This document shows positions 1 to 54,256 of a DNA stretch of 54,256 bases, piece after piece (the stretch's first letter is position 1; each line of letters starts with the position of its first letter). The position numbers and the translations under genes are program-made. Source of the DNA: Patescibacteria group bacterium (lineage in GTDB: Bacteria > Patescibacteriota > Microgenomatia > UBA8517); NCBI GenBank assembly GCA_018823885.1, contig JAHJHG010000007.1, positions 1-54,256 on the forward strand, given 5' to 3'. Below the pieces are notes generated by a model. It was not told the origin of the DNA. It did no database searches and worked only from the letters and a program-made list of their open reading frames with translations.

Positions 1-1256
1 GCAAGGCTGTTCTGAGCAGAAACCGAAACATCATCTGGTACGCACTTTAGTACTTCTAAATTGTCCGTCATCCAAGATTCATGTCGATAAAAAGCTCTTT
101 TGAACAAGCTATTTATCGGGGCATGCAAGAAGTAATCTTCTGCAACAATTAATCCTACTATTATTATTGCAATTAGAGACCCTGCAAAATAGGCTTTTTT
201 CTTAAATCTTTTCTGCAAATTATTAAAGCCATAGATACTTCCCCAAGCCATTATCGTTGCCATAGGCAAAGAATAGGCAAAATAAGGGGTCCAGCGAATT
301 GTTTTCGCATAATCAAGAAATCGGCTGGCAAATTGCTCAAAAACCAAGATCAAAGTAGAAGGCGCAAATATGGGCAAGAATCCCCATGGCCAAAAGGCAG
401 TGAACATTGTATTAATTTTTACGGGAGAATCAATAAAGGCTCTTACTAAAACCAGAGGGTTTTTAAGCACATTAAGTATTACTTCAAATGGTGTTTCACC
501 TAAAATTCCAAACCCAGAGTGCCTATAGGTCCCGTCGCCTATTGCCGGCATTATTAATCCAACCAGAAAAGCTGTTGCCCCTAGACCAAAAACAATAGAT
601 AGTATTGCTTGTTTCCATCTTTTTCTATCATTCAAAAGCGCCCACAGTCCAAAAGCGGCTAAAAGCAAGCCGATTTCCTCTTTAACTAGCAATGCCAATA
701 AAAATGATAGCCAGTAAAACTTTTGATTTTTTGTTTCCCAAAAATACATAACTGCCCCCAGTGTTAAGGGCAAAAAGGCAAGCTCGTGAAACCCGGAAAA
801 AGTGTGCCACTGTAAAGAGTAGAACAAAAGGTACCCAATAATTACGACCAAACTAAACAAGCGATGCTTGGTTATTTTTTTACTTAAATAATAAAGCGGA
901 GCAGCACCAAGAGCAGTAACAACAGCCTGTACAGAAACGAGTAATTTTACGCTAGGCCATATCCAATACAAAGGAACAATTGTAATCAAAATTATATGGA
1001 AATGATCGGCCAACCAAGGAAGATCATGGAAAGACGAATATGGAATCTTGAACAAGGACCATTGCCAAATACCATGATCGAAAACACCTAAATCCCAGCC
1101 ATAGGTCTCAAAAAGCCTGTGCTTATTAATGGACATAAAACAATAAATTCCGGCAAAAAGAAAGACAAGAAACCATGCAAAATAGTCTTCATATTTTAAT
1201 ATTTTCCCTTTTTCTTTACCCTGAAGAATCTTTTTGACTGTTGTAACTAAATGCAT
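1..1256 (-). CDS. DUF2079-family membrane protein (GT-C-like), 3' end beyond window
   Basis: Not in the ORF track (no stop found). I translated the two ends: ATG at 1256 shares 1 nt with the upstream TGA and gives MHLVTTVKK...FETYGWDLGVFDHGIWQW...LADHFHIIL...PLYWIWPSVKLLVSVQA; the window edge reads LKCVPDDVSVSAQNSL in the same frame. Motifs typical of DUF2079. Confidence 0.8.
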   Translation of the reverse strand, partial: MHLVTTVKKILQGKEKGKILKYEDYFAWFLVFLFAGIYCFMSINKHRLFETYGWDLGVFDHGIWQWSLFKIPYSSFHDLPWLADHFHIILITIVPLYWIWPSVKLLVSVQAVVTALGAAPLYYLSKKITKHRLFSLVVIIGYLLFYSLQWHTFSGFHELAFLPLTLGAVMYFWETKNQKFYWLSFLLALLVKEEIGLLLAAFGLWALLNDRKRWKQAILSIVFGLGATAFLVGLIMPAIGDGTYRHSGFGILGETPFEVILNVLKNPLVLVRAFIDSPVKINTMFTAFWPWGFLPIFAPSTLILVFEQFASRFLDYAKTIRWTPYFAYSLPMATIMAWGSIYGFNNLQKRFKKKAYFAGSLIAIIIVGLIVAEDYFLHAPINSLFKRAFYRHESWMTDNLEVLKCVPDDVSVSAQNSL

Positions 1257-2098
1257 CAATATCCAACCTTGCCCTGCCAAACCCTTCTTTTAAGCATTCT
1301 AAGTGGGGTTTGAATCAATGCTTTAACATAATAATCTCTATCCATATTGCCCCAAGTAGATAATATAACATTGGGCCTAGGTTTAAAGAACACTTCTGGA
1401 TAGTGGAAATCCAGAGGAAAGCTTTTTCCAATTTCTATCTTTTGCTTTATTTTCCTTTTAGGAACATCCAAATCTTTTTCGAGTGTCGATGATCGGATCA
1501 TATGAGTAAAATGCATAAAATGGGCATTAATAAACTTCCTAAATTTCTGGGGTCTTTTTTGAATGAGCCTCCCTTTTCCATCAAAAAATCCTTGTGTACC
1601 ATGAGGTTTGTCTAAATGAAGTCCGGAAATTTTCCTATTCATGGCTCTTATCGTATAGTGTCCTACTTTCCCATCAATTCCATATCTTCCGGCCCTTTTT
1701 TCTTGATAGTGATAGATATCTCCCACGATGTTGTAGTAGGGATTAACAATTGTTTCAAGCTTGTCTCCTTGTTTATGAATTGTATCTACTACTTTTCTGA
1801 TTGAATCACTCCACCACACCTCGTCCCCATCAAGAATCAGGACCCAATCTGATTTTGTTTCATCCAGCATTTGTTGTCTTACGAAAGTAAACTCATCAAT
1901 ATTAACTTCTCCTATTTCTTTAAATATAATTTTATGAGGATATTTATTTTGAAGTTTTTTTATAATCTCAACCGTTTTGTCCGTACTGCCCGTATCCCAA
2001 ATAAGTATTTTGTTTACATAATTAATAACACTCATGATCGCATACCAAAGATATCTTTCCTCATTTTTGACTAATGTGTGTGCCCAAATCTTTTTCAT
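1256..2098 (-). CDS. Glycosyltransferase family 2 (GT-A)
   Basis: HTLVKNEE, WDTGSTDKT, ILDGDE DxD motif; ATGA overlap with upstream gene. Confidence 0.9.
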   Translation of the reverse strand: MKKIWAHTLVKNEERYLWYAIMSVINYVNKILIWDTGSTDKTVEIIKKLQNKYPHKIIFKEIGEVNIDEFTFVRQQMLDETKSDWVLILDGDEVWWSDSIRKVVDTIHKQGDKLETIVNPYYNIVGDIYHYQEKRAGRYGIDGKVGHYTIRAMNRKISGLHLDKPHGTQGFFDGKGRLIQKRPQKFRKFINAHFMHFTHMIRSSTLEKDLDVPKRKIKQKIEIGKSFPLDFHYPEVFFKPRPNVILSTWGNMDRDYYVKALIQTPLRMLKRRVWQGKVGY

Positions 2099-2844
2099 AT
2101 CAATTTTCTGTGTTTATATCCTTTCCCTCGCCTTAGCATAAATTTTAAAATTGCTTTGTAAATATAGTAAGGATTGTCCAAAAACAGCAAAGCCTTTCCT
2201 CTTTTTATTAAATTTTTGTGTTTTTGCAAATAGCCTTCATATTCATCTATGAGTTCATGAATATTGAGGCTATTCTTTGCCATATAATCAATTTCTTCCT
2301 CCCAGTAATATCGCGTTTCATTCTCGCCTAGCCAGTCTACTATATGAAACTTAGGAGTATATAGAACTGGATAATTCTTTGGAATAATCTGTAACTTTTT
2401 TTTCTTTTTAGTAAAAAACCACTTATGATGCGCATTGCCCGGCACCCTTCTTGGCCCTGTAAGCCAGTTGGTAATATCAAAATGAGAAAACTCCATATCC
2501 TTTCCCATCGAAGGTGTCGCAATATAACCCCTTTTTGCCACCCTAGACATCTCATCTAATACTAAAAACGGCTGCGACAAATCTTCAAGGGTGTGAGTAC
2601 ATAGACAAAAATCGAACTCATTGTTCTTAAATGGAAGCCTCTCTCTTGTAATGTCAAGCCTGATAAAATTGTCTGCCTCTAGCTTGGAAGAGCCATAAGG
2701 TGCTTCTTCGGGATGAATAATGTCAACCAACGTATGTATTTTAATTTCTTCGTGTTGCTTCATACTCCCCCCAATGTCTAAAACTTTTTCTTTTGAAGAT
2801 ATTCTGAATTTTTTGATAATATGCTTATCTGACAAAGTATTCAT
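2095..2844 (-). CDS. Class I SAM-dependent methyltransferase
   Basis: VLDIGG motif I, LPFKNNEFDFCLCTHTLED, EMSRVAKRGYI. Confidence 0.8.
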   Translation of the reverse strand: MNTLSDKHIIKKFRISSKEKVLDIGGSMKQHEEIKIHTLVDIIHPEEAPYGSSKLEADNFIRLDITRERLPFKNNEFDFCLCTHTLEDLSQPFLVLDEMSRVAKRGYIATPSMGKDMEFSHFDITNWLTGPRRVPGNAHHKWFFTKKKKKLQIIPKNYPVLYTPKFHIVDWLGENETRYYWEEEIDYMAKNSLNIHELIDEYEGYLQKHKNLIKRGKALLFLDNPYYIYKAILKFMLRRGKGYKHRKLI

Positions 2845-4127
2845 GTTTTGGGGCTAGTCCGATAATACCTAATAACTATTGTCCACACATAAACTGCCAA
2901 TATTGTATTAACTAAACCAAACGCTACAGTTGGGGCATAAACGCCAATTTTGGGAATAAGAATCAGATTGATTATGAAAACTGTGAATATCTGGAAAAAC
3001 GAAAAAACTCCAATATAAATCGGTTTTTTCATTGCATAAATTATCGCGGGGACTGCAGGAGCGGTAAGAAGAAAAGGAATCATAGATGCAGCTAGTGCCC
3101 TAAATACTGGAACAGAGGGTAGATATTTTTGTCCGAAAAGTATTGCGATAAAAGGCTCTGCAATAGCAATCCAAAGAATCACGCCGAAAATTACAGGAAC
3201 TATTGCCAATGATGCTTTCTTAATATAAGTTTTTTCGCTCTCTTTGTTTCCGAAGGAGGCCAGTCTGGGAGCCAATACAGCTGAAAAACTTGATGTAAGC
3301 AGCACAATAAACATGGCTAGCCTAGAAGAAATAGAGTAAAAACCCGTCATTGTCGCCCCTGCCATGGCTGCGAGCATCTGAACATCTAGGCGTCCAGATA
3401 CTGAAGAAATCACCCTGTTTACACCCAGCCAACCAGAAAAACGAAGAAGCTTTGAGTAAACATCTTTTTCGACCCTAACAAGCAAAAAGCTCGTTCCCAA
3501 AAAAGCAAAACCCGCCAATATTACAAAAAAAGTACTTAGCGTAAATGCGACAAATGCTTTCGTTAATGTGAGTCCACCTAACATAAAAAAACCAAAAGCT
3601 AACAACAATCTTCCTCCTGCCAAAGACAAATCAACCACGACCGATTGCAAAAAGCGCTTTTGTGCTTGAAGTATCGAAGGGAAAAGAGCCCAAAATAGAA
3701 ATGCTAGAGATAGTCCGCCCACCCAATAGGCTACCGTCGCGTCTCTTGTAGCAAGAAAACTATTAGAAATAAATGGTGCAAAAAGGACAGTAATTAAAAC
3801 CAAAACAGAAAGTGCAATCAACCTCACAACAAGCGATGCTTTCATATACTTCTGGGCCTTTAAAACATCTCCTTTGCGCGAAGCTTTTGCTATAAAGCTA
3901 ATTAGTCCAGACGAAATACCGAGATCAGACAAAGAAGCAATGATCGTGACCAAGTTTACAGCTGCGGAGAATACCCCAAAGTCTGAAACTGATAGTCCTC
4001 TAGCGATTAGAAGAGTAAAAAGAAAACTAAAAAAAGCAGATACTAAATTTCCAATAAATAAAACGTATGTATCTCTCGCGGTCGCGGAAGTAGCCAGTGT
4101 TGCTATCCTCTTATATTGTCTTTTCAC
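2841..4127 (-). CDS. wzx: Wzx-like oligosaccharide flippase (MOP superfamily)
   Basis: Highly hydrophobic 428 aa; ARGLSVSDFGVFS, SDLGIS, RLDVQML, GFYSISSRL, VLAPRLA, ILFGQKY; GTG start. Confidence 0.85.
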   Translation of the reverse strand: MKRQYKRIATLATSATARDTYVLFIGNLVSAFFSFLFTLLIARGLSVSDFGVFSAAVNLVTIIASLSDLGISSGLISFIAKASRKGDVLKAQKYMKASLVVRLIALSVLVLITVLFAPFISNSFLATRDATVAYWVGGLSLAFLFWALFPSILQAQKRFLQSVVVDLSLAGGRLLLAFGFFMLGGLTLTKAFVAFTLSTFFVILAGFAFLGTSFLLVRVEKDVYSKLLRFSGWLGVNRVISSVSGRLDVQMLAAMAGATMTGFYSISSRLAMFIVLLTSSFSAVLAPRLASFGNKESEKTYIKKASLAIVPVIFGVILWIAIAEPFIAILFGQKYLPSVPVFRALAASMIPFLLTAPAVPAIIYAMKKPIYIGVFSFFQIFTVFIINLILIPKIGVYAPTVAFGLVNTILAVYVWTIVIRYYRTSPKT

Positions 4128-4144: not shown

Positions 4145-5818
4145 TTAATGCTCCTTCCTCACAAGAAGGACTGCCCTTGCATCTTGTCTTTCATAAGTTT
4201 CTTCTGCTGATACTTGATAAACATCTTTTAGTTCAAAATTGTCAGCAATAAATTCATTTTCCAGATTTTCGGGATTATAAAATATCTGCCTCCATTCTTC
4301 TCCCATATAATAATTTTCATCATCTATAAGATAACTTGTGAGATATATTGCATCAAAAGGAATTTCTTTATCATCTTTAAGGTTTAACTGCTCTGGTTTT
4401 AATGGAAACCAAATCGTTTTTCTTTCTCCATACCAACTTCCCCAGGTATCAAGATTTGTAATAACCACATCATCTAAGCCTGTATTGTCTCGAAGTAGCC
4501 ACGACAATCGAACGTAAGCAGGAGGTTTTCCTTTATTTGTTCTTGCAACCTTAAACCTTGAATCTAGAAAAATCACCCCCAGAGTTTGCCCCACTACAAA
4601 GAAAAATATCAAGAAAGTAGATATCCCTGTAGTTAAGTGCCCTTTTTTTAACCCAGAATATGTTTTTTTTAGATAGCTGAAAATTGACACTTTTGAGTCA
4701 ATCATTTTTTCGACTATCCAAACCAGAGTTGCTACCGCAAAAATATAAACAAAAGGAACAGTTGGATGAAGATATCGGTAAAAAGGAATTGTAATTGCAT
4801 TAACAATAAAGACAATTGCAACCATAAATAAAACCGTTAGTTTTGAAGAATTAATAAGCCTGTTTTTATTGCTTTTGAAAAGACCAATGATAAATAATGC
4901 CCAAAGATATGGAGATGCGATTTCAGGAAGAAGTTTATAAAAATTATACATATTATAAAGAAATTTTTTGATCATGATTCCAATATTGGCCAAAAATAAG
5001 GCTCGTGGATCAATAAGTGTTTCTCTCAAGGCCACATTGGATGGAGCTATTGTTGAATAATGGAGAGATGAAATAAGTCCCCTGTTAAATATTGATACCA
5101 GAAACAATTTATCTCCAAATAATCTGGCAGCAATTTCGTAAATAAGAATAGTTGAAACAACAATAAAAACAATTTTCAAATAAATATAGCGATTGTCCTT
5201 TAGATTTAGATAAAGAAAAAATGCCAAGAGAACAATTAAATATATTGGAGCATGGGGCCTTGCAAGATAAATAGGTATGAAACTTAAAAAACCGAATAGG
5301 TTGGTCCATTTATTATTTAAAATAAAAAGATAAAAAACCAATAACAATCCAAATACAAAAAGCGTTTCGGTTGCTCCAGTTGTCGCATAGTCCAGAAAGT
5401 TAACATTAGCTGCAACTGCCACCGCACTCAAAAACCCGACAAGTCTTCCAAAAAGCTTATTTCCAATTAAATAAACCATTGTTACAATACCTAAATAAAA
5501 AATAGATGAAGTAGTAATTACCGATAAATCTGAGATTCCCAGTGCTTTAAACGACGCTAGAAAAGCAAAAGACATCAGAGGCGACATCCAATATGCAGAA
5601 AAAAGATTGTCTTTTGTTAAATTTAATAAGGCATTTGAAAATGTAGAATAACTAACTCCATAACCTCTACCAGTAGCAATGTTTCTTGCCAAATCTGCGT
5701 ACTTTGCACTGTCAGAAAATGTTAAATACGGAGTTTGAGTAAGTTTGTTGAAGAAACAAAGGAACAAAATACTAAGAAGTAGTAACATAATTACTGAAAA
5801 GTATTTTCTTAGTAGCAT
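4145..5818 (-). CDS. ArnT/PMT-like GT-C membrane glycosyltransferase
   Basis: TM1 then FSDSAKYADLARNIATGRG loop, TETLF, ARP, FYRY; polytopic with a C-terminal soluble domain. Confidence 0.8.
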   Translation of the reverse strand: MLLRKYFSVIMLLLLSILFLCFFNKLTQTPYLTFSDSAKYADLARNIATGRGYGVSYSTFSNALLNLTKDNLFSAYWMSPLMSFAFLASFKALGISDLSVITTSSIFYLGIVTMVYLIGNKLFGRLVGFLSAVAVAANVNFLDYATTGATETLFVFGLLLVFYLFILNNKWTNLFGFLSFIPIYLARPHAPIYLIVLLAFFLYLNLKDNRYIYLKIVFIVVSTILIYEIAARLFGDKLFLVSIFNRGLISSLHYSTIAPSNVALRETLIDPRALFLANIGIMIKKFLYNMYNFYKLLPEIASPYLWALFIIGLFKSNKNRLINSSKLTVLFMVAIVFIVNAITIPFYRYLHPTVPFVYIFAVATLVWIVEKMIDSKVSIFSYLKKTYSGLKKGHLTTGISTFLIFFFVVGQTLGVIFLDSRFKVARTNKGKPPAYVRLSWLLRDNTGLDDVVITNLDTWGSWYGERKTIWFPLKPEQLNLKDDKEIPFDAIYLTSYLIDDENYYMGEEWRQIFYNPENLENEFIADNFELKDVYQVSAEETYERQDARAVLLVRKEH

Positions 5819-5842: not shown

Positions 5843-6535
5843 TCATCCTTTATAATAAACAGCGAACAAATCAGGAGAAAACAGTGGCACCCACAAGTGC
5901 TTTAATAATCTAAGTCTTCCAGCACAATCAATTCTTTCTCGCTTAAAACCCGCTCTGGAAAAGACTAAGTCTAAAGAGTGCAGTGCAAAGAACCTTATGT
6001 GTTCATCACAGACACCAGGAATTACCCCATGTGTTGGTGCTGTTTCGGGGAAATTACCTAACATTAGATTAATTCTGTGAGGCAACCAGGCCACATTCGG
6101 CACTTCAACCACCACTCTTCCGCCTTTTCCAACAATTTTCGATAGTTTTGTTAATAATTCCAGCGGCCAAGAAATGTGCTCTAATATTGCCAACATGTAA
6201 ACTGTATCAAATTTTTGTTTTTTTAATATTGCTTTTTGTACAAAAGTATCTATGTCGCTGATAATATACTCTGTGTTGTCATTGGCTTTCTTCTTGGCTT
6301 TCTTAATCAAACCTGGAGCCAAATCAACACCAATAAGTTTTTTGTATTTTTTGTGTAAAAATCTATTTATCAACTCCCCATCACCGCAAGCAACGTCTAA
6401 ACAGGCTTGTCCAGACAATCCAAGCTCTACTGCAACTTCCTCTCTGGAATAATTTTTAACAAAGCGGTCTAAAAAAACACCCCACCATGGTTGCTTGACT
6501 TTCATGGGGTTAGAATAATACTCTTCAAGACACAT
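5843..6535 (-). CDS. Class I SAM-dependent methyltransferase (start may be ATG 6505)
   Basis: CLDVACGDG, GVDLA, FDTVYMLAILEHI, GGRVVVEVPN, EHIRFF. Confidence 0.9.
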   Translation of the reverse strand: MCLEEYYSNPMKVKQPWWGVFLDRFVKNYSREEVAVELGLSGQACLDVACGDGELINRFLHKKYKKLIGVDLAPGLIKKAKKKANDNTEYIISDIDTFVQKAILKKQKFDTVYMLAILEHISWPLELLTKLSKIVGKGGRVVVEVPNVAWLPHRINLMLGNFPETAPTHGVIPGVCDEHIRFFALHSLDLVFSRAGFKRERIDCAGRLRLLKHLWVPLFSPDLFAVYYKG

Positions 6536-6556: not shown

Positions 6557-7141
6557 CTAAAGATCTTTCAGCATCCAGATAGAATGCTCTACTGCTCTGT
6601 CTATCTGGCTTAAGCTCTTAATGACCTTAATAATTGAACCTTTCAAGCCATCATTTCTTAACACTTCTCTAAAAGCAATAAGGTAGCGATCATAAAAAGC
6701 TACTTCGATTTTTTTAAAACCCACCACCTCATATAATTTAATAGCTCTTGAGTTACTTTCATACACATTCAGTAAAATCTTATTAATTCCTTCTTTTTTG
6801 CACTGGTCAAAAAGTTGATTTGTAAATCCTTTTGCCAGCCCTTTTCCTCGAAACTCTTCTGAAATTACTATTCCGAAATATCCTTTCATTGGAAATAGTG
6901 GAAATCTACTAACAAAAGCGTACCCGGCTATTTTTCTTTTTTTTCTGCTCGACAAGAATATTCTTACATCTTTCTTGTCTGCAAATAATTTTTTCAGAAA
7001 TTCCTCGCTGAAAGGATGAGGATGAAATAGCTTTATGGTTTGAGGAATAAGAGATTTAAAAAAATTTGCCAAAATTTTAGCATGAGAAGCTTTAATTCTT
7101 ACTATCAAATATTCCTTCGGTTTCTTATCGCTAATATGCAT
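6557..7141 (-). CDS. GNAT-family N-acetyltransferase
   Basis: FRGKGLAK acetyl-CoA motif A and NSRAIKLYEVVGF motif B. Confidence 0.85.
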   Translation of the reverse strand: MHISDKKPKEYLIVRIKASHAKILANFFKSLIPQTIKLFHPHPFSEEFLKKLFADKKDVRIFLSSRKKRKIAGYAFVSRFPLFPMKGYFGIVISEEFRGKGLAKGFTNQLFDQCKKEGINKILLNVYESNSRAIKLYEVVGFKKIEVAFYDRYLIAFREVLRNDGLKGSIIKVIKSLSQIDRAVEHSIWMLKDL

Positions 7142-7145: not shown

Positions 7146-8249
7146 TTAACTAAGTATGTTCATAACAGTTCTAGCTACGTACAAAGCCTCTTTTTCAGTA
7201 AGAGTAACACCAGAAGGTAAATTCAAACCATTGGAGGCCAAATAATCAACTACTGGGAGTCTAATTTTATGATTTATGTATGGCAATTTGTATATTGGAT
7301 AGAAAAATGGGCGAGTTTCTATGTTTGCTTCCGAAAGTCTATGTATTAATCTATCTCTTGAGGCCTTACTTTTATCAGTTAAAACGATTGAAGACATCCA
7401 ATAGGTGCTTCTAGCCCATTTCTCTTCGGGGGAGAATTCAATTTTATCAAAACCCTTAAAGGTTTTCTTGTAAATTTCAGCGATCTTTCTTTTTCTCGAA
7501 ATAAATTTATTTATTCTTTCAAGTTGAGCCAACCCTACCGCTGCTTGAAGATTTGTTAGGGCATAATTGTAGCCAAGTTGGGCATGATAATATAAGCTCA
7601 CCGCTCTATCTCTCGCACCATCTCTTAAATATTTCACTTTTTCTGCAAGCTTCTTGTCGTTGGTTACAACCATTCCACCTTCACCAGTTGTTATAGTTTT
7701 ATTCCCAAAGAAACTAAAACAAGACATCTCTCCAAAACTTCCCACTTTTTTTCCATTAACTAATGCTCCGTGCGCTTCTGCTGCATCTTCGATCACAAAA
7801 ATTTTATATTTCCTGGCTATTTTCATAATTGCTGGCATGTTTACAGGATGTCCATATAAATGCACAGGGATAATTGCTTTGGTTCTTTTGCTAATCTTTT
7901 TTTCAATACCCTTGGGATCTAAACACCAATTGAACCTGTCCACTTCAAGAAAAACAGGTTTCGCACCTACATAAAGCACTGCGTTTGCTGTAGCAGCAAA
8001 AGTTAAACCAGGAATCAAAACTTCATCACCAGGGCCTATGTCAAACGCCAACAGCGCTAAGTGCAATGCTACTGTTCCATTTGAAACGGGAATGCCATGT
8101 TTCACTCCACAATACTTAGCAAATTTTTCACCAAATTCAGGAACATATGAACCGTTTGAAGAAATCCAATTTGTCCTTATACATTTGGTAACGTATTTCA
8201 GTTCGTTACCTTTTAAGTCTGGTTCAGCAATAGGTATTTTCTTTCGCAT
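7146..8249 (-). CDS. per: DegT/DnrJ/EryC1/StrS aminotransferase, GDP-perosamine synthase-like
   Basis: WISSNG, SNGTVALHLAL, VHLYGHP, IEDAAEAHG, SFFGNKTITTGEGGM (PLP lysine motif of the perosamine synthase type). Confidence 0.8.
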   Translation of the reverse strand: MRKKIPIAEPDLKGNELKYVTKCIRTNWISSNGSYVPEFGEKFAKYCGVKHGIPVSNGTVALHLALLAFDIGPGDEVLIPGLTFAATANAVLYVGAKPVFLEVDRFNWCLDPKGIEKKISKRTKAIIPVHLYGHPVNMPAIMKIARKYKIFVIEDAAEAHGALVNGKKVGSFGEMSCFSFFGNKTITTGEGGMVVTNDKKLAEKVKYLRDGARDRAVSLYYHAQLGYNYALTNLQAAVGLAQLERINKFISRKRKIAEIYKKTFKGFDKIEFSPEEKWARSTYWMSSIVLTDKSKASRDRLIHRLSEANIETRPFFYPIYKLPYINHKIRLPVVDYLASNGLNLPSGVTLTEKEALYVARTVMNILS

Positions 8250-45339: not shown

Positions 45340-45356
45340 TCAATAAATAGTGGCGG

Positions 45357-46250: not shown

Positions 46251-46252
46251 GT

Positions 46253-46909: not shown

Positions 46910-46918
46910 CGTACCTAG

Positions 46919-47944
46919 TTAAACTAAATTCTGAATCTCCTTTTCAAATCTTTCATATTCGTATATTCGACTGTCCTCTTTTGCTTTCTTAGAAACTTTA
47001 CTAAATATTCCTTTACCCTCAATAATATTCCTGGTATTTTTCAACAATTGCCTTGTATTTTCCCACAAAAATCCATTCTCGCCATTGGCGATAATTTCTT
47101 TGTGTCCTCCAGCCGAAAAAACAATTGGAACAGTACCCGAAGCCATGGCCTCGACAGTTACAATCCCAAAATGTTCTACTTTTTCTGGCTCTTTACTCTC
47201 ATCAGCCCCAAAACCAGCTGCGGACCAAAATATTTTTGCCTTACCATATAATTCTTTTATTTGACTAAAGCTTGGGCTTTCCAAAATTCTAATAGAATAT
47301 CCTTTTGCTAATTTTCTTAACTTTTTTACATAATCATCAACGCCGACTTCTGTTCCCCCCGCCAATACAAACTCCCAATCATCAAATCCAGAATCAGAAA
47401 ACCTTTTAAAAGCTTTTATTAAAACGTCTTGTCTCTTTGCCTGCTTTAATTGAGAAAATCGACCTACGGAAACAATTAGATTTTCTTTTCTTTTTGGTTT
47501 AAAGTCACCAACGTCGACTGGTGGATAGACAACAATGCTTTCCACTCCATACTCTTTATCTATTACTTTCTTTGTAAAATATGAGTTACATATAATTTTC
47601 TCGATTCTGAAAAATTTCATTCTATTCAGTAATGTTTTACCACTTCCATCATGAAAAGGGACTTGAAAGTGTAAAAAGTTTTTGCGTGCCCGAAGTATCG
47701 GAATGGAGCCATCGGAAACCCAAAAACAAACATCATACCCATCCCCTCGACCAACATCCTCAATAAAATCAACACCTTCAAGATCAATATTAAATCGCTT
47801 TTCTAATTTTTCCTTTATTAGCGGATCCTTCCACTCAACATCTACGCTGTATTCCTTACTAACTAATGCTCGCGCGACGCCCATCGTGTAGCGTTCACCG
47901 CCACCTAGTGTATCTAAATATGGATTTACAATTGCTGCCTTCAT
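46919..47944 (-). CDS. Glycosyltransferase family 4 (ALG11/ALG2-like motifs)
   Basis: NPYLDTLGGGERY, NSYFTK, VVYPPVD, SVGRF, EHFGIVTVEAMASG. Confidence 0.85.
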   Translation of the reverse strand: MKAAIVNPYLDTLGGGERYTMGVARALVSKEYSVDVEWKDPLIKEKLEKRFNIDLEGVDFIEDVGRGDGYDVCFWVSDGSIPILRARKNFLHFQVPFHDGSGKTLLNRMKFFRIEKIICNSYFTKKVIDKEYGVESIVVYPPVDVGDFKPKRKENLIVSVGRFSQLKQAKRQDVLIKAFKRFSDSGFDDWEFVLAGGTEVGVDDYVKKLRKLAKGYSIRILESPSFSQIKELYGKAKIFWSAAGFGADESKEPEKVEHFGIVTVEAMASGTVPIVFSAGGHKEIIANGENGFLWENTRQLLKNTRNIIEGKGIFSKVSKKAKEDSRIYEYERFEKEIQNLV

Positions 47945-48705
47945 TTTTTCTTCCTATTTAGTTGCATTTCCCAAAGTTTGCCATAGGTAACAAATTTACT
48001 CCACATCTGATAAATTGCATATACCACACCTTCTGTGCCATCCAAGAAACCCTTAAGCTTAATTAATCTATACCATAATTCTGTTGCCATTATTCTAAAA
48101 AATCTCCACCCAGCCATTTTGGGATGGCCTGATTTAAGTAAAAGCTTTGCTTCAATCTCAGACCATTTATTTGTTTTTTCAACCATTTCTGATAATTTCG
48201 TGTGTTTTAAATGAACAAGTGGGTTTACAAGGTGTCCAAGTTCGCCTTTAACAACGGGGTTCTCATGCAAATCTCCTTCCCACTTAACAAGGGCTTCTTT
48301 CTTCATCAGCCTTTTGACATGATCCGGCCACCAACCTCCATGCTTCATCTCTTTCCCTAAAATAATATTCCTTCTGGGAATTGCATAAAGAACAATATCT
48401 GTAGGACTATTTATTACCTTTAATATTTCTTTACGAAGAAGGGGAGTTACTCGTTCGTCTGCATCAACATATAAAAGCCAATCACTCTTTGCCTCTATCG
48501 CTCCCTGGTTTCTCCAATCGCTAAATCCCCCTTTCGCAAAAGAGATTACTATTGCCTTTCTTTTCGTGGCAATCTGGATAGTTTTATCGTCTGATCCTGT
48601 ATCAATAACCAATACTTCATCCGCCCAAGAGAGAGAATCCAAACATTCGCCGATTTTTTCCTCTTCATTCTTCGTAATAACTATTGCTGATATATTATTT
48701 TTCAT
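47941..48705 (-). CDS. GT2, WaaE/LgtF-like
   Basis: ITKNEE, IDTGSDDKT, VDADERVT, GGWWPD, LHE, GFLDG; start moved to ATG 48705 (ATGA overlap). Confidence 0.9.
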   Translation of the reverse strand: MKNNISAIVITKNEEEKIGECLDSLSWADEVLVIDTGSDDKTIQIATKRKAIVISFAKGGFSDWRNQGAIEAKSDWLLYVDADERVTPLLRKEILKVINSPTDIVLYAIPRRNIILGKEMKHGGWWPDHVKRLMKKEALVKWEGDLHENPVVKGELGHLVNPLVHLKHTKLSEMVEKTNKWSEIEAKLLLKSGHPKMAGWRFFRIMATELWYRLIKLKGFLDGTEGVVYAIYQMWSKFVTYGKLWEMQLNRKKK

Positions 48706-49631
48706 TTCCAAGAACCTTTCCCGAATCGACCTAAATAAAAATCTCTGGCCCCAATCTTTTGCCACTTCCTCCCGATTAAAAGGTGTTTGAGGCTTTCCCT
48801 AATTAATGCAAATTTAGTTCTTAAAGACACATAGCGAATACCGAAAAGCAGTCTGTTGCGAGTTGTAAAATAATCATTCAGACCACTTCCAATTCCAGAG
48901 CTTTGAGCCACTTTATGCCAAAGATGTGCAAAAGGATAATACACAACCTTCCAACCGGCCTTCCTCGCCCTTTGTGATAAGTCAGAGTCCTCGTAATAAG
49001 CAAAATATCTCTTGTCGAGTAACCCTATCTTGTCTAAAACTTCTCTTCTAATTAAAATACAGCACCCTGTTGCAAAATCAGTTTCCTTCGTTTTGTCATA
49101 TTGTCCTTCATCTACTTCATCAACACCATGATTCGAGCCGTAAACATTGTTCCAATCTATGTCCCCTCCTGCATACCAAAATACTTTTCCCAAATCCTTA
49201 TCTTTATATCTAGCTTTATGAAACTCAAATCCTTTTGCGAAATATATTTTTGGCGATATTAGCCCAATATCTTTATGCTTGTTCGCATACCCAACAAGAT
49301 TAGATATACAATCTTGTTCCACTATCGTATCGTTATTAAGAAGAATGATGTAGTCTGCCCCAGTATCAAGCGCGTATTTAATCCCAACATTATTGCCCTT
49401 AACGAAGCCTGTATTTTCTTCTAGTTCAATTAATTTCCATCTTCTGTTACCTACCTTCTTTGCTTCTTTTATGTATCTGGCTACGGTCTGTTGTGACCCA
49501 TCAGTTGATCCATTGTCCACAACAATAATCTCTAACTCAAAATCTTTAATCCTCGATTCTTTCAAGGATTTCATGCATGATAAAGTGTCTTCTTTCCTGT
49601 TCCAATTTAAAATGATAATGGAAACCTTCAT
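48702..49631 (-). CDS. Glycosyltransferase family 2 (rhamnosyltransferase-like)
   Basis: IILNWN, VDNGSTDGS, GNNVG, LLNND, FAYYEDSD, RNRLLF. Confidence 0.9.
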   Translation of the reverse strand: MKVSIIILNWNRKEDTLSCMKSLKESRIKDFELEIIVVDNGSTDGSQQTVARYIKEAKKVGNRRWKLIELEENTGFVKGNNVGIKYALDTGADYIILLNNDTIVEQDCISNLVGYANKHKDIGLISPKIYFAKGFEFHKARYKDKDLGKVFWYAGGDIDWNNVYGSNHGVDEVDEGQYDKTKETDFATGCCILIRREVLDKIGLLDKRYFAYYEDSDLSQRARKAGWKVVYYPFAHLWHKVAQSSGIGSGLNDYFTTRNRLLFGIRYVSLRTKFALIRESLKHLLIGRKWQKIGARDFYLGRFGKGSWK

Positions 49632-49641
49632 ATATATTTAA

Positions 49642-50541
49642 TCAAGAAATCTTAAGCTTCCTTTTTATTTTTTGAAGAACTCCTCCACCACCTTTAAGAA
49701 GAGTGTCCGCCTGCCAATAGTGAAGGTCGGACTCTTGCTTTTTCATTGTCTTAATAACCCTCTCTACACTAATTTCTTTCTCTTCAAATTTTTCACTTTG
49801 CCAAACCTTAAGATAAAGAGTTAGTTCTGAGAATGCCTGAAGCAGAGCCAAAGCAAGACCATGAATACCGTCTTTGTACCCTTCTCCTGCAAAGTATCGG
49901 CTCAAAAATTCAGAAGTGGGCTTTACTATCACATCTTTCCAAGAAAACTTATAACCATCATCAACTAACCCTTTCGCTTGAAGTGTGGTATATCTATTCA
50001 TTCTCTCAATGTACTGCTCAATGGATTCGTAATTATTGTGAATAATTGCCAAATCCTCTCTCGCTGGAAGATCTAATCCTTTTCCTTGAGTCATGGGAAC
50101 CGAATGAATTATTTCACTCCAAGAAACAAATTCTTTTTGAAAAAAACGAATATTGTGATCCGGCCACCAACGTGAATGCTTCACCCATTTCCCAAAAATT
50201 AAATTCTTTCTAGGAAGTCTGTAATAATTGGCACTTGGGTTTTTGACGATTTCTTTTAACTTCTTTGCCAGGTTTTTGGGAAGCTGTTCATCTGCATCTA
50301 TAATAAGTATCCATTTCCCCGTCGCCTTTCCTATCGCAAAATTTCTAGCCGGTTCTACATATCCCATCCTTTTGTATTCATATACCTTTGCCCCTGCTTT
50401 TTTTGCAATATCAACAGTACTGTCGTCCGATTTCATATCAACCACTATTATTTCATCGGCGAACTTTTTTACTGAAGCAAGCGCTCGAGGCAGATTATTC
50501 TCTTCATTAAGCGTATTTATGACTACTGATATCTTTGTCAC
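49642..50541 (-). CDS. GT2, WaaE/LgtF-like
   Basis: NTLNEE, VDMKSDDST, IDADE, WWPDHNIRFF, GYKDG; GTG start. Confidence 0.9.
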   Translation of the reverse strand: MTKISVVINTLNEENNLPRALASVKKFADEIIVVDMKSDDSTVDIAKKAGAKVYEYKRMGYVEPARNFAIGKATGKWILIIDADEQLPKNLAKKLKEIVKNPSANYYRLPRKNLIFGKWVKHSRWWPDHNIRFFQKEFVSWSEIIHSVPMTQGKGLDLPAREDLAIIHNNYESIEQYIERMNRYTTLQAKGLVDDGYKFSWKDVIVKPTSEFLSRYFAGEGYKDGIHGLALALLQAFSELTLYLKVWQSEKFEEKEISVERVIKTMKKQESDLHYWQADTLLKGGGGVLQKIKRKLKIS

Positions 50542-50547
50542 GCCTAA

Positions 50548-50556
50548 ATTTTACCA
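50548..50556 (-). promoter_or_regulatory. Putative extended -10 promoter (TGgTAAAAT), leaderless spacing
   Basis: Minus strand reads AA-TGG-TAAAAT-TTAGGC-GTG(50541). Confidence 0.55.
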
Positions 50557-50593
50557 TTTAATTGGGAGTTATTCACACGAAGACCTAATACTA

Positions 50594-52312
50594 TTAATTA
50601 TTGACTGCAAAAATGTCGACTTCGCTATTTTCAAAAATTTTCGTTATCCCAAGCTGACTTTCTCCTAATATTGCCCGTTGGCCTATGATCCAATAAATAT
50701 ATGAAATGTTGTTTTCCTCCAAAAAGCTTCTTGCCTCTTCCTGATTGGGTATCTTTAAGAATAACTCAACTTTTTCGCGTCGTCCTCTCCAATCATATCC
50801 CGTTATATCCAAATTTACCTCATCCTCTAAATAAACGATTTTTTCGCTAAAAGCTGAAACATATGCTGTCGATTCATATAAATATAGTGGCCTAGGAGGA
50901 TTAGCTAAAGCTTGCTTCGCAGCTTCTCTATCAAAAGGATAGGTCAAAACAATGCCGTCTGACTGCTTTGATAGAAAACTAAGCGCTTCAAGCTCTTCGT
51001 TAGAAATTTTAGCGGGCGGGCGAGAGGGTAAATAATGTTTAAGTGTCGCAACCGTGGTTGGAATACTCAAAATAATAATGATGATTCCTAAAATATTTAT
51101 TGATCTTTGCCCCTTCCTTTCGAGCCACTCTCCAAAAACGACTCCCGCGAAAATACCCGAGAACGTAAGGGAATAGTAGAAAAATTGAATTGTATTCCAT
51201 GGGGTTCCTTTCTGAAGAAAAAACATTGGAAATATAATTCCAAAAAATATCACCACGGCGAAAAATATTTCAATGAAAGATAGTTTTTTGTATTTTCTAA
51301 ACCATTGAACCATTAGAGGAGCTTTAATAATCCTTATCCCCATATTCCCAACTACGAAAATTAGAAAAGCGATAAAATATGCTGGAATTGCCTTGTACCA
51401 AATATTTCCTAAGCGATAATTTACCATTGCTTCAGCAAATCTCGGCCAATAAAACCTATCTGATAGACCCATCATTGTTTCCAAAAACCAAAAAGGGCGA
51501 AATACAATTAGACCAACAGCGTTCTGATTTAAGGGAAAAAAGAAAAGTGCGGCAAAGATACTTGATATAACAAACACTTTAATTAATGTTGTTTTCTTTC
51601 TTTTAATGAATTCGTAAAGGCCGGCAATAAAAAGTCCACCTAAAGATAAAATTCCTGCATATACTTTTATTTGAGCGAGAATTCCGAAAATCAATGATAT
51701 CGCCAAAAGACACCAAATTGTTGAAGATTTCTTTAGCTTAAGTAGGCCTATTAAACCTAAAAGTATTAAAACCACAGAGAGTGCGAAAGGTGGGTTTATA
51801 AGGGTTGAGATAGCTTGTTGTGACCAAAACAGAGATTCGCCACCAATTTGACCCTCTCTTGCCAATGAGATCACCCAACCAAAGCTTCCTGCAAAATATA
51901 TAAAAAATGTTGCCCAGAAGGCTTGAATTTTTGATTTCTTCCAGAGATAAACAAATTTATAAGTAAGAAAACCTGTTAAAAATGCAATTATTGGAGGAAT
52001 TATCTGAAAATATAATGTCTCGGCAGGAATTGTCGTAATTCTGTGGAGAATGGCTAGCAACAAGTCATAGCCAACATGATAATTTCTGAGTGTTTCGCCA
52101 GCAAAAACCGGCATTTGCCAGTTACCATTTGCAAGATGATTAATTAAAGCAATATGCCATACCCCATCATGCCCATTTGGCCCCCAAAACCCCTTTCCAA
52201 AAGAGTAAATCAAACCACTTTTAATCATAACCAAAGACCAGGTAACAGTTCCAATAATTATTAGCAATTTTATTGCACTATTATTTATCTTTAGTTTGGC
52301 TTTTGTCCCCAT
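50594..52312 (-). CDS. Polytopic membrane protein, putative GT-C
   Basis: TM1 then NGHDGVWH loop, NYHVGYD, NPP, many TMs and a C-terminal soluble domain (FLEENNISYIY...IFENSEVDIF). Confidence 0.65.
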   Translation of the reverse strand: MGTKAKLKINNSAIKLLIIIGTVTWSLVMIKSGLIYSFGKGFWGPNGHDGVWHIALINHLANGNWQMPVFAGETLRNYHVGYDLLLAILHRITTIPAETLYFQIIPPIIAFLTGFLTYKFVYLWKKSKIQAFWATFFIYFAGSFGWVISLAREGQIGGESLFWSQQAISTLINPPFALSVVLILLGLIGLLKLKKSSTIWCLLAISLIFGILAQIKVYAGILSLGGLFIAGLYEFIKRKKTTLIKVFVISSIFAALFFFPLNQNAVGLIVFRPFWFLETMMGLSDRFYWPRFAEAMVNYRLGNIWYKAIPAYFIAFLIFVVGNMGIRIIKAPLMVQWFRKYKKLSFIEIFFAVVIFFGIIFPMFFLQKGTPWNTIQFFYYSLTFSGIFAGVVFGEWLERKGQRSINILGIIIIILSIPTTVATLKHYLPSRPPAKISNEELEALSFLSKQSDGIVLTYPFDREAAKQALANPPRPLYLYESTAYVSAFSEKIVYLEDEVNLDITGYDWRGRREKVELFLKIPNQEEARSFLEENNISYIYWIIGQRAILGESQLGITKIFENSEVDIFAVNN

Positions 52313-53157
52313 GCTTCAAGTTCTCCTGTAAATGCCTTAAAAGAAATATTTCTAAAAGGCGTATTTTTAAGAATTTTCAACATAAAGTCAAAGAAAGTAG
52401 GAGCATAGTACCTTAGTCTGTTCATTATATATTCAAGGCTTAATATGTGATATGTTTTTGCTGTTTTAATATCAGTAAATCCCGCATTTTTCAGTGCGCG
52501 CCTCATTGTTTCCTGAGAGAAATACATAACATGCTCAACTGGTTTATAGTGATACCAAAAAGGACCCAATAGTTTTGACCATAATCCTCCCACATCTGGA
52601 GTTACAAGATAAACTATACCTCCCGGCTTTAATATTCCCTTTACTCTCTTAAGTTCCTGAACAGGATCTGTGACATGCTCAATAACATCTTGATATAAAA
52701 CAATATCAAAACTATCTTTGGCGTATGTATTGTTCCCTAGGACACCTTCCTTAACTTTCAATCCTCGTTTTTTCGCAAATTTATATGCATAGGCAGAAAT
52801 CTCCAAACCTTCCGCCTCTTTCCATCCAAGTCTTTTTGCTTCTACTAAACAATCGCCCAGCGCACAACCAACGTCAAGAAGTTTGCCTTTTCCAAATCTC
52901 TTTTCAATCTTCTTAAGACGATTCGAAAAGGTCTTTTTATTGACGGCCATCCCATCAAAATAATTTGCGTACCCTCCTTTAGGATTTTCATTTATAAAAT
53001 ACCTTTTATCATATTGAGCTAAAAGATTATCGGGGGGAAAGAAATCCCAAACCATTTTGCAATTTTTGCATCGAGCTAATCTGTATCCAGACATGGCCCA
53101 GAATTTTTCCTCCTTGCTTTTTTTGCAAACAGGGCAAAATAATTTTTTAGATTTCAT
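52291..53157 (-). CDS. Class I SAM methyltransferase with N-terminal Zn-ribbon-like motif
   Basis: CPVC...CKNC, LLDVGCALG, DVIEHV, LKPGG..LVTPD, EHVMYFS. Confidence 0.9.
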   Translation of the reverse strand: MKSKKLFCPVCKKSKEEKFWAMSGYRLARCKNCKMVWDFFPPDNLLAQYDKRYFINENPKGGYANYFDGMAVNKKTFSNRLKKIEKRFGKGKLLDVGCALGDCLVEAKRLGWKEAEGLEISAYAYKFAKKRGLKVKEGVLGNNTYAKDSFDIVLYQDVIEHVTDPVQELKRVKGILKPGGIVYLVTPDVGGLWSKLLGPFWYHYKPVEHVMYFSQETMRRALKNAGFTDIKTAKTYHILSLEYIMNRLRYYAPTFFDFMLKILKNTPFRNISFKAFTGELEAWGQKPN

Positions 53158-54256
53158 ACTTATATATCCACCTATTACAAAAGGTTTCTGTATCCATTTT
53201 TTCTAACATATAATCTGAAACAACATGCTCTCTGCGCCAAGGAGAAAGAGCCATATTTCTGCAAAGATTATCATTTAATATACTAAATTGAAATCCTGCA
53301 TCTTTTTGATCTTGTATTACCAATACTTCACCCTTTTCTGGCAGGTCGCAATTAAGCCTTGAGTCGAATATTACAATCTCCCCCTCTTTGTAATTATCAC
53401 ACCCGCTCCTAAAGATAATGTTGTCGATTGTGTGTTCCTTGCTCCTTAGTTGCGGTGTGTCAACCTGCTGGCCATTGAAATATATAAGATATTGGTGATA
53501 CATAGCATAAGGAGATGTTGTAATAACTATTATGTTTTCATCGGTATTTTCTCTTGCTCTAGATATATAATTTGACACAACACGACCACTTAAAAAATGA
53601 TTCTCTTGTTGTTTTATTGGATATCTGAAAAAGAAAAATACCAGAAAGTTTACAAATAGTGTCAAATATAAAACTGCTGTGACACCAATGGCAACCTTTT
53701 TGTGTTTCTTGCTCAACTCCTGATAAAGAAAGGTTACACCACAAGCAATCAGAACAATTAAGGCAGGAATGAGCAAAAATCCCCTAAAAAAATATGAATC
53801 ACCTATTTTACTTACAGCTGAAGGTAAGGGGGCCACAATAAATAGTGCGGCAAGTAAAAATATAAAGCCATTTTTGTTTTTGTGGACTTTTAACCTGGCC
53901 AATCCGAACACCCCCAATAGAATGAAAAATATGTCTAGAAGATATATAACACCGTGTTCTCCAAACCTATAGATAGAGGGACTATCGCCACCAAAAAGCA
54001 GGTGGTCTGGCGATAGCCAGCCAATATATTTAGCAAACACCTCCTTCGCGAGAGATGTGCCTTTATTATAAAAAAGATTTGTTGCGGGAAAAGTTATTGA
54101 TGCCCTTCTTTGTTCGTTTATCTGAGTTGAAAACCTATCAAGATTCATAAAAACAAGCTCTCTGTCACTTCGCAAGGAAAGCGTATTTTCACCTGACAAA
54201 AGGCTTAAAGAAATAAAGTAACTTCCAATAAGTGCTAAAAATGTAAATAAATATAA
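53147..54256 (-). CDS. ArnT/PMT-like GT-C, 5' end beyond window
   Basis: Frame is open to the window edge (LYLFTFLALIGSYFISLSL precedes the tracked MSGEN); LFYNK, LSPDHLLFGGD, APLPSA, YFFRG match the array family. Confidence 0.75.
   Translation of the reverse strand, partial: LYLFTFLALIGSYFISLSLLSGENTLSLRSDRELVFMNLDRFSTQINEQRRASITFPATNLFYNKGTSLAKEVFAKYIGWLSPDHLLFGGDSPSIYRFGEHGVIYLLDIFFILLGVFGLARLKVHKNKNGFIFLLAALFIVAPLPSAVSKIGDSYFFRGFLLIPALIVLIACGVTFLYQELSKKHKKVAIGVTAVLYLTLFVNFLVFFFFRYPIKQQENHFLSGRVVSNYISRARENTDENIIVITTSPYAMYHQYLIYFNGQQVDTPQLRSKEHTIDNIIFRSGCDNYKEGEIVIFDSRLNCDLPEKGEVLVIQDQKDAGFQFSILNDNLCRNMALSPWRREHVVSDYMLEKMDTETFCNRWIYKYEI

Follow-up and report, generated by a model that had tools for sequence, protein, structure and literature searches.

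The stretch of DNA analysed here, called the window in what follows, is the entire contig C7 (54,256 bases) of a Patescibacteria genome of 756,347 bases in nine contigs, rated 98% complete. It holds a dense cluster of glycosylation genes in which polytopic membrane glycosyltransferases (GTs) of the GT-C type predominate: 19 open reading frames (ORFs) of this type, all of them genuine minus-strand ORFs, cover 29,418 of the 54,256 bases (54%). ORFs are named below by their first coordinate and lie on the minus strand, as does every gene-like ORF of at least 100 amino acids (aa) except that at 17389-19035 (+). GC skew is below zero in each 2-kb bin of the window and the cumulative skew runs steadily downward, which agrees with the single coding direction; GC content is 33-39%. 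An origin in the candidate phyla radiation (CPR), proposed in the initial annotation, is borne out by the 756-kb genome and by the homologues, which carry the names Woesebacteria, Blackburnbacteria, Shapirobacteria or Microgenomates. The DNA of the window is present in seven groundwater-metagenome runs from four studies. In two runs not flagged as possible sources, each contig piece departs from the window by 0-3 letters; the window is therefore no assembly artefact. The matched runs are DNA contigs only, with no RNA run listed for window positions 44000-53000. Metagenome "joints" whose sides measure only 22-38 letters were set aside, since paralogues seem to have cross-matched there.

The initial annotation counted about 19-20 GT-C-like ORFs. 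All 19 of the polytopic ORFs that it listed are of GT-C type, 15 with strong and four (4145, 9519, 11904 and 22637) with moderate support, while the "miniature" that it added at 33761 turned out to be a truncated remnant. By a Kyte-Doolittle heuristic, the 17 complete GT-C ORFs have 7-10 transmembrane (TM) segments and the two end-truncated ones 5 each, and an acidic motif follows the first TM helix in all 18 ORFs that possess an N-terminus. The annotation had proposed Pfam scanning and structure prediction as checks. In the Pfam scan, ten ORFs scored above the curated cut-off for GT-C-type families: the DUF2079 ORF at 3-1280 (168.5 bits), eight PMT_2 or PMT ORFs, and the 813-aa YfhO-family protein at 39080-41521 (70.3 bits). 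DUF2079, YfhO and PTPS_related are families that we take to be members of the Pfam GT-C clan. The DUF2079 ORF, whose C-terminus continues on contig C3, also aligns to a profile of the PMT_2 paralogues (hhalign, 86%). No NCBIfam family scored above its cut-off in any window ORF, and MIR domains, a feature of eukaryote-type GT39 enzymes, were found on none of them at E up to 0.01 in the Pfam scan.

The eight ORFs above the gathering cut-off of PMT_2 (PF13231) or PMT (PF02366) are 23793 (23793-25253, 37.7 bits), four tandem paralogues at 27179-33776 (27179, 28828, 30458 and 32127; phmmer 1e-50 to 1e-108), two further tandem paralogues at 34389-37806 (34389 and 36082), and 41518 (41518-43251), with 32127 passing via the PMT model. 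The DE motif of loop 1 is present in all seven tandem PMT_2 paralogues, and acidic residues follow the first TM helix in 3-1280, 4145, 22637, 23793 and 39080. At the far end of the window, 53147-54256 is the C-terminal part of another PMT_2 paralogue (phmmer 1.4e-20; hhalign 98.8%) whose N-terminus is lost at the contig end; judging from synteny, the missing part is probably the one with which contig C9 closes. By contrast with these enzymes, the 215-aa ORF 33761 (33761-34408) aligns solely to the middle of the PMT_2 paralogues (hhalign 95%, profile columns 282-453 only), lacks the DE loop and has no orthologue in either of the two complete genomes used for comparison (G018 and G019). It is thus a truncated remnant that lacks the catalytic N-terminal module, rather than a miniature enzyme.

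Other GT-C ORFs were placed through family profiles or predicted structures. ORFs 37815 (37815-39083) and 44065 (44065-45339) are paralogues of each other (phmmer, E 4.6e-65), and neither has a Pfam match. A profile of their family (A1, 34 sequences) matches yeast ALG6 (6snh) with E 1.7e-10 over residues 12-380, and PIG-M too, while scattered members of the family match Alg6_Alg8, GT87, PIG-U, PMT_2 and DUF2079. For 14194 (14194-15804; family A2) and 50594 (50594-52312; family A3), whose families are likewise not modelled by Pfam, searching the PDB with the family profiles gave nothing useful; hhalign of A2 against A1 was ambiguous (50%) and that of A3 against A1 negative (2.5%), and single-sequence hhalign to the PMT_2 paralogue profile gave no match for 14194, 37815, 44065 or 50594. 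Since sequence profiles were of so little help for 14194 and 50594, both were settled by structure prediction, which was run on these two of the 19 ORFs and gave a GT-C fold for each. The AlphaFold2 models (predicted local distance difference test scores of 90.6 for 14194 and 82.9 for 50594, built on 34 and 37 homologues, respectively) are multi-helix bundles. For 14194, the top 36 Foldseek rows are GT-C enzymes without exception, and VIA-align gave Z 22.5 to Pmt4 and STT3 (root-mean-square deviation (rmsd) 4.5-4.7, 369-428 residues aligned), with a drop from Z 10.5 for ALG6, the last GT-C enzyme, to 5.5 for a G-protein-coupled receptor. For 50594, Foldseek returned STT3, AglB and PglB at about E 2e-8, and VIA gave Z 19.0 to human STT3A (rmsd 6.4, 449 residues aligned) over the whole protein length. 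Several of the structural matches of the two proteins are EmbB, AftA, AftB, AftD and PimE; sequence identity to the solved enzymes is only 7-16% throughout. In the family alignments the invariant loop-1 residues are D36 for A1 (seen in 44065), D41 and D42 for A2, and D49 for A3, in which H48 is also invariant.

The four ORFs with moderate support are linked to PMT_2 or its relatives in several ways. ORF 4145 (4145-5818) scored 23 bits against PMT_2 in the ORF scan and 31.4 bits summed in a six-frame scan, a borderline result, while its orthologues in G009 and G019 lie above the cut-off (34.4 and 28.8 bits). ORF 9519 (9519-10865) is borderline as well (24.0 bits in the ORF scan, 27.1 in the six-frame scan), and 11904 (11904-13241) is its paralogue (phmmer E 5e-22; BLASTP 26% identity over 400 aa); the two have the loop motif WDAxALYD in common. 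ORF 22637 (22637-23788) falls short of the PMT_2 cut-off (18.4-21.6 bits) and has a sub-threshold DUF2079 signal; in its nearest Atlas clusters (score 0.99) about half of the members carry PIG-V/Mannosyl_trans2, and it is best described as PIG-V/PMT_2-like.

Two GT2 enzymes of the window, 16574 and 21945, had been singled out as DPM1-like synthases of lipid-linked sugars, and they are indeed the only ones of this kind among its ten GT2s. Dol-P-Man synthase, GtrB and ArnC are the best PDB sequence matches of these two alone (for 16574-17257, GtrB 1.2e-8, DPMS 1.5e-8 and ArnC; for 21945-22604, DPMS 5mlz 1.6e-10 over residues 1-216, and GtrB), as polyprenyl-phosphate transferases are the top NCBIfam rows of these two alone. 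Both miss the equivalog cut-offs of NCBIfam (121.8 bits for 21945 against a PpgS cut-off of 370; 45 for 16574 against 375 for a Dol-P-hexose transferase), and their sequences therefore point to putative polyprenyl-phosphate sugar synthases at the level of the family only. In an all-against-all phmmer comparison they group with three GT2s of contig C9, apart from the other eight GT2s of the window. Every donor synthase of the locus adjoins GT-C genes, and 21945 is followed by a small DUF2304 membrane protein (21604-21948, 63.5 bits). From the fold of the GT-C enzymes and the synthases next to them, we infer the use of polyprenyl-phosphate donors on the outer face of the membrane.

The remainder of the window is largely given over to enzymes that would work with nucleotide sugars or modify their products. 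The eight other GT2s are 1256-2098 (which clusters with 26299, 47941 and 49642), 20819-21607 (TuaG-like; 106 bits in Pfam, 80 bits to NCBIfam TuaG, below its cut-off), 26299-27213, 43256-44068 (of a rhamnosyltransferase-like group by NCBIfam and clustering), 45357-46250, and three at 47941-50541 (47941, 48702 and 49642) that are syntenic with genes of G018 and G019; all were assigned by Pfam (Glycos_transf_2 for 1256), as were the three GT4s at 8318-9508 (Glycos_transf_1), 25250-26323 and 46919-47944. A Wzx-like flippase of the MOP type with about 11 TM segments is encoded at 2841-4127 (Polysacc_synt, 78.9 bits, and Polysacc_synt_3), a DegT/DnrJ/EryC1 sugar aminotransferase at 7146-8249 (406.7 bits) and a GNAT acetyltransferase at 6557-7141 (Acetyltransf_1). 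There are five clear S-adenosylmethionine (SAM) methyltransferases, at 2095-2844 (Methyltransf_11), 5843-6535 (Methyltransf_23), 15801-16571 (Methyltransf_25, Methyltransf_11), 46253-46909 and 52291-53157, and one weak candidate, a 462-aa protein at 19100-20488 with a C-terminal Methyltransf_23 signal below the cut-off (E 0.0011). With 11 other GTs of nucleotide-sugar type and a Wzx-like flippase in the window, the locus goes beyond the extracytoplasmic assembly line envisaged in the initial annotation. Between the synthase 16574 and the 462-aa protein lies the single plus-strand gene, 17389-19035, which encodes a 548-aa protein of unknown function with about four N-terminal TM segments and no Pfam or NCBIfam match.

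A tandem-duplicated module of two genes occupies 9519-14197, in which an unknown membrane protein (13238-14197 or 10868-11878) is followed by a GT-C-like ORF (11904 or 9519). The two membrane proteins are paralogues (phmmer 2.5e-13) of about 320-336 aa, and their family (A4) has 199 representative matches; none of 35 homologues scanned carries a Pfam family, and the A4 profile gave no PDB match. Residues N115, P227, F245, L246, P248, R249, W279 and P280 are invariant in the family.

The window is only part of a longer locus. Overlaps of 141 bases between contig ends order the reverse complement of C7, C3 and the reverse complement of C5, and the truncated DUF2079 gene of the window is completed on C3, where an ORF covers model positions 355-423. 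When the contigs are arranged as C9, reverse complement of C7, C3 and reverse complement of C5, best-hit mapping shows collinearity with two complete genomes, at 320-420 kb of G018 and at 355-485 kb of G019. Across the nine contigs, exact end overlaps of 141 or 138 bases connect C7-C3-C5-C2, C6-C9 and C8-C1, so that they are partly orderable, and it was probably the paralogous PMT_2 genes that broke the assembly.

On C3 and C5 (39-57 kb), the GT-C content consists of two PMT_2 genes, a weak PMT_2-like ORF and another PMT_2 gene. These are accompanied by six GT4s, three GT2s, a hexapeptide acetyltransferase, a DUF4012 protein and, on C5, a Wzy_C protein (47.5 bits), a ManC-like nucleotidyltransferase and a 212-aa Bac_transf phosphoglycosyltransferase (198 bits) as initiating transferase, a type absent from the window; outside the locus, the genome has two PF00953 genes. 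On the C5 side, the border of the locus is marked by RecO and a tRNA synthetase. At the end of C9 are the genes rmlA, B, C and D and an HlyD/ABC/MacB transporter set, along with a fusion of a GT2 to a GtrA domain and two DPM1-like GT2s of 246 aa, each directly followed by a PMT_2 gene. Further along are a third PMT_2 gene, a PTPS_related protein, an ALG6-like protein, a Polysacc_synt_3 flippase (176.7 bits) and, as the last feature, a PMT_2 paralogue of which the contig retains only the N-terminal 239 aa. In both G018 and G019 the orthologue of this flippase is directly followed by that of 50594. A DHH/DHHA1 phosphoesterase gene (C9, L004 9912-10901) has a PMT_2 gene on either side and keeps a syntenic position in G018. 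Some 6 kb upstream of rmlA, C9 encodes a 1313-aa protein with several bacterial Ig-like domains and Golvesin_C and Y_Y_Y domains (L025 6774-10715), which could be a surface glycoprotein; near it are a lamin-tail-domain protein, a CAP-domain protein and an FdtA-like gene.

Measured from rmlA to the DUF4012 gene, the locus is about 99.1 kb long and takes up 13% of the genome. It comprises about 28 GT-Cs (27 and one weak), five DPM1-like synthases, 11 other GT2s and nine GT4s, which makes about 50 glycosyltransferases in all, together with two flippases and one initiating transferase. The GT-C types are PMT_2/ArnT-like, ALG6-like, PIG-V-like, YfhO, DUF2079, PTPS-related and the two families with no Pfam model. 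Apart from a single gene of the window and another of C9, all genes are co-directional, and 20 of the 24 PMT_2 matches of the genome fall within the locus. The disparity between many GT-Cs and few lipid-donor synthases that had been noticed in the window, 19 to 2, thus persists in the full locus, at about 28 to 5. The reported absence of WecA/WbaP, rml and manC is correct for the window by Pfam and does not extend to the adjoining contigs, on which rmlABCD, the ManC-like gene and the initiating transferase are found. Pfam scanning of the examined ORFs in the window and joined contigs brought up no Wzz family, although no search was aimed at Wzz, as none was at Wzm/Wzt or gmd. Outside the locus, the genome has two LCP ligase genes whose products could link a polymer to peptidoglycan. 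One of them (67265-67777) adjoins a gene on C9, also outside the locus (69151-71583), for an 810-aa protein that matches the A1 (ALG6-like) and PMT_2 profiles, the latter twice.

Abundance of such enzymes is normal for this order and uncommon in the wider phylum. PMT_2 matches were counted as a measure of the GT-C numbers across Patescibacteria that the initial annotation had wished to see compared; some long ORFs match twice, so that these are not gene counts. PF13231 matches are present in 41 of 41 genomes of the lineage, and in the 40 relatives (same genus, family, order or class) they number 6-40 per genome (median 25.5). Among 115 other Patescibacteria, with at most 27 candidates scored per genome, the median was 3 and the maximum 21, and 12 genomes had none. 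Clustering recurs as well: 19 of the 25 listed PMT_2 matches of G018 lie within 103 kb of its 811-kb genome and 25 of the 31 of G019 within 128 kb of its 786-kb genome, and similar clusters are seen in G009, G011 and G026, which makes five complete or near-complete relatives. A search for related loci with the A1 family returned Microgenomates-type records only, some labelled otherwise, and so provided no comparator from outside the CPR.

The tandem PMT_2 genes are old. The seven paralogues share 24-36% mutual identity. In an IQ-TREE tree, five of them pair one-to-one with genes of G018 (Shimodaira-Hasegawa-like approximate likelihood ratio test (SH-aLRT) support 99-100; 41518 with G018:346871 at 100), with gene order kept, and a sixth, 32127, pairs one-to-one with a gene of G019 (SH-aLRT 96). 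The tree covered neither the partial 53147, the fragment 33761 and the G019 fragments 417386 and 429091, nor any of the lower-scoring PMT_2 genes of G018 and G019. Because their one-to-one orthologues are in another genus, the tandem duplications must be old. Between paralogues, the N-terminal catalytic module has a mean identity of 36% and the C-terminal extracytoplasmic domain the lowest, 23%; between orthologues, all parts are at 34-61% and the C-terminal domains at 34-59%. The acceptor-specific enzymes proposed in the initial annotation fit this pattern, in which C-terminal domains diverge among paralogues and are kept among orthologues, and it would be consistent with non-redundant enzymes that share a chemistry and differ in acceptor or linkage. 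Two PMT_2 paralogues of G019 (417386-419024 and 429091-430735; L014-L015) are each split into two overlapping ORFs, which may reflect frameshifts or pseudogenes.

Gene content is less constant at 5.8-20.5 kb of the window, a stretch between two collinear flanks for which G018 offers no orthologues and G019 only a few. It holds 14194, the modules 13238/11904 and 10868/9519, a GT4, DegT and GNAT. With conserved sequence on both sides, it has the look of a variable cassette of the kind seen in many loci for surface glycans. The family of 14194 has only 38 homologue matches, and orthologues of 4145 occur in just six of 40 relatives.

In the reading that we favour, with a probability of roughly 0.6, the window is the middle part (54 kb) of a locus about 99 kb long for a cell-envelope glycan, which would operate in two stages, mycobacterial or ALG-like in logic. 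The reading builds on the enzyme families and folds described above, on the ancient orthologous paralogues and on the conserved gene order. On the cytoplasmic face, the small Bac_transf phosphoglycosyltransferase would prime polyprenyl phosphate, and the GT4 and GT2 enzymes would extend the chain from nucleotide sugars, among them dTDP-rhamnose (from rmlABCD), the product of the mannose-1-phosphate nucleotidyltransferase and perhaps an amino sugar made by DegT and GNAT; methyltransferases may modify the product, and Wzx-type flippases would export it. On the outer face, the roughly five DPM1/GtrB-like GT2s would provide polyprenyl-monophosphate sugars, from which about 28 GT-Cs could add specific residues or branches. 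This two-stage flow, and with it the sharing of donors, we infer. It is notable that components of a Wzx/Wzy pathway (the initiating transferase, Wzx flippases and the Wzy_C protein) are all present in the locus. A wall-linked polysaccharide, a lipoglycan and glycoproteins are all candidate acceptors, and we lean towards a wall or membrane glycopolymer.

Several points weigh against this two-stage reading. Glycan, donor and acceptor are all unobserved, and no RNA run with the locus was found. The junction of C9 with C7 is supported by synteny only, with no sequence overlap between the end of C9 and the end of the window, and the PMT_2 tree was a quick search with SH-aLRT support. Four of the GT-C calls have only moderate support. 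The sole GtrA-type domain is that of the fusion on C9, which makes the flipping of lipid-monophosphate sugars a weak point of the scheme, and the LCP genes are outside the locus. Finally, the relatives of PMT_2 include true protein O-mannosyltransferases, and protein acceptors are therefore possible.

This last point leads to an alternative to which we would give perhaps one chance in four, in which the locus serves mainly in protein O-glycosylation and the PMT_2/PMT-like enzymes each glycosylate particular secreted proteins from polyprenyl-phosphate donors, whether pilins or S-layer proteins, as suggested in the initial annotation, or large surface proteins with Ig domains. The eight ORFs above the PMT_2 or PMT models, the Pmt4/STT3-like folds of 14194 and 50594, the paralogue-specific C-terminal domains and the position of the 1313-aa protein so close to rmlA would all suit it, and the C-terminus of the YfhO protein (39080) resembles PgfM1 and PgfM2 of Streptococcus mutans in NCBIfam, which have a role in protein glycosylation in that species. 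Nevertheless, PMT_2 also spans ArnT-type lipid and glycan transferases, the Pfam scan placed no MIR or TPR acceptor-binding domain on any PMT_2 ORF, and the genome offers neither an STT3 Pfam match above cut-off nor a WWDYG-type motif. The rml genes, the two flippases, Wzy_C, the initiating transferase and 20 cytoplasmic GTs suggest instead that a polymer is assembled on a lipid carrier.

A bolder proposal is that the locus is a bacterial counterpart of the asparagine-linked glycosylation and oligosaccharyltransferase (ALG/OST) pathway, with a glycan built inside, flipped, elaborated by about 28 GT-Cs and transferred en bloc to envelope proteins or the wall by the 50594-family enzyme. Residues 1-572 of 50594 align to residues 10-696 of STT3A, C-terminal globular domain included (VIA), and the family has more than 1,500 homologues. 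Among the 120 matches listed, at 56-100% identity, none carries a GT-C Pfam family and 119 carry no Pfam family at all. Near-universal in the order, with identities of 56-87%, it is found in 38 of 41 relatives, mostly in single copy, and inside the GT-C region in G009, G011, G018, G026 and G019; of 121 genomes sampled across the phylum only four have it, all from the family to which the window itself belongs. In G039 a 50594-family sequence lies within an open frame of 1158 aa, a possible fusion, and the genes of G017 and G071 contain in-frame stops. The fold ranking, however, is not decisive, with Pmt4, AglB and ArnT within 2-4 Z units of STT3A. The best match of the STT3 Pfam model in the genome reaches 15.9 bits (on C9) against a cut-off of 24.5, with none on 50594 or 14194, and the WWDYG-type motif (W[WYF]D[YWF][GS]), the C-terminal-domain signature of STT3, PglB and AglB, occurs in 0 of 1219 genome ORFs of at least 80 aa. 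The model thus places 50594 as a probable GT-C enzyme of the STT3/PMT/ArnT class and not as a member of the STT3 family, and we regard en bloc transfer as improbable. If it did occur, complex surface glycosylation would belong to the core of what these episymbionts do and might be essential to them. Three or more of the GT-C families are without a Pfam model.

Less probable again, at long odds, is that the GT-C array is no fixed assembly line but a recent expansion that diversifies fast and makes strains differ in their surface glycan, for phage escape or host switching. The stretch at 5.8-20.5 kb, the narrow distribution of 4145 and 14194, the truncated 33761 and the split PMT_2 ORFs of G019 are what it would draw on. 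Yet six of the seven tandem paralogues pair one-to-one with genes of another genus (SH-aLRT 96-100), their mutual identity is only 24-36%, and the contig pieces from the two groundwater runs not flagged as sources are nearly identical to the window. Old one-to-one paralogues together with a single orthologue-poor stretch limit diversification to one cassette, not the array. That many of the polytopic ORFs are transporters or inactive scaffolds sharing a helical-bundle look is already largely refuted and very improbable: seven ORFs have no Pfam match and helical membrane proteins can score middling in structure comparison by chance, but the top rows for 14194 (36 in Foldseek) and for both models (47 and 50 in VIA) all have the GT-C fold and are nearly all glycosyltransferases, plus a few PIG-U chains of the glycosylphosphatidylinositol (GPI) transamidase, with a sharp fall to unrelated folds for 14194, the A1 profile matches ALG6 by sequence, loop-1 acidic residues are invariant in three family alignments, and only 33761 looks inactive.

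The locus is of particular interest, as CPR bacteria have shed most biosynthetic pathways and this lineage nevertheless keeps about 50 glycosyltransferases in one locus. Such an investment implies a complex surface glycan central to the life of the cell, perhaps in host contact, wall integrity or phage defence. The GT-C families not modelled by Pfam (14194, 50594 and 37815/44065) and the membrane family of 10868/13238 are targets for structural and enzymatic work. Enrichment at the level of families is already on record: the supplementary table of Meheust et al. 2019 (PMC6744442) marks a PMT_2 family (5,188 proteins) and a second PMT_2 family as "enriched", along with PIG-V-like and GT2+GtrA families, while the word stem "glycos" is absent from the main text, and a passage in a paper on a complete Microgenomates genome mentions "29 genes of glycosyl transferases" (PMC7143001). 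In full-text searches of the library used, no paper was found on GT-C expansion in the CPR, on this locus or its scale in Microgenomatia, or on the unmodelled GT-C families.

Known systems offer several comparisons. Gtr-type three-component systems are similar in having GT-A synthases of Und-P-sugars beside GT-C genes, with rmlABCD in the same locus; they differ in that each GT-C has its own synthase and adds side chains only, whereas about five synthases face about 28 GT-Cs here, and in having their own flippase where this locus has a single GtrA domain. A synthase is paired with a GT-C in SccN/SccM of S. mutans, and SccP/SccQ act likewise on the rhamnose polysaccharide; in the passages concerned, systems of synthase, flippase and GT-C are described as decorating streptococcal rhamnose polysaccharides on the outer face (PMC11754754). 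The ArnT/PMT_2 enzymes (GT83/GT39) are alike in that eight window ORFs pass their models and keep the loop-1 DE motif. Typical bacteria carry one or a few such enzymes, whereas seven or eight stand in tandem here, and, unlike eukaryotic PMTs, they have no MIR domains. The ALG/OST pathway (ALG3/9/12, ALG6/8/10, PIG-M/V, STT3/AglB) also has many GT-Cs on few lipid donors and has its parallels in the ALG6/PIG-M-, PIG-V- and STT3-like-fold enzymes, the DPM1-like synthases and the flippases; with no STT3 Pfam match above cut-off and no WWDYG motif, the locus has at most a putative oligosaccharyltransferase, and its likeness to the pathway is drawn from folds and family profiles.

The mycobacterial and corynebacterial pathways for lipomannan (LM), lipoarabinomannan (LAM) and arabinogalactan (Emb, Aft, Mpt and PimE, with polyprenyl-P-mannose and decaprenyl-P-arabinose) have the same logic, cytoplasmic first and then GT-C. 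The pair of 21945 and its DUF2304 neighbour resembles PpgS, which works with a small membrane partner, and the likeness of Emb, Aft and Mpt to the GT-Cs of the locus is again drawn from fold and logic. The mycobacterial GT-C genes are scattered in a 4.4-Mb genome, as against one locus of about 99 kb in 0.76 Mb, and the number in Mycobacterium tuberculosis is matched or exceeded by the roughly 28 here in a genome about one sixth the size. In the eukaryotic endoplasmic reticulum, many GT-Cs share one or two lipid-sugar donors. The same sharing in mycobacteria is outlined in a published account that models LM and LAM synthesis as a switch from GT-A/B to GT-C enzymes (PMC2157549). The low ratio of donor synthases to GT-Cs, to which the initial annotation had drawn attention, is no anomaly in itself. 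The finding is thus a striking scale-up and clustering of known kinds of enzyme rather than a new kind of system.

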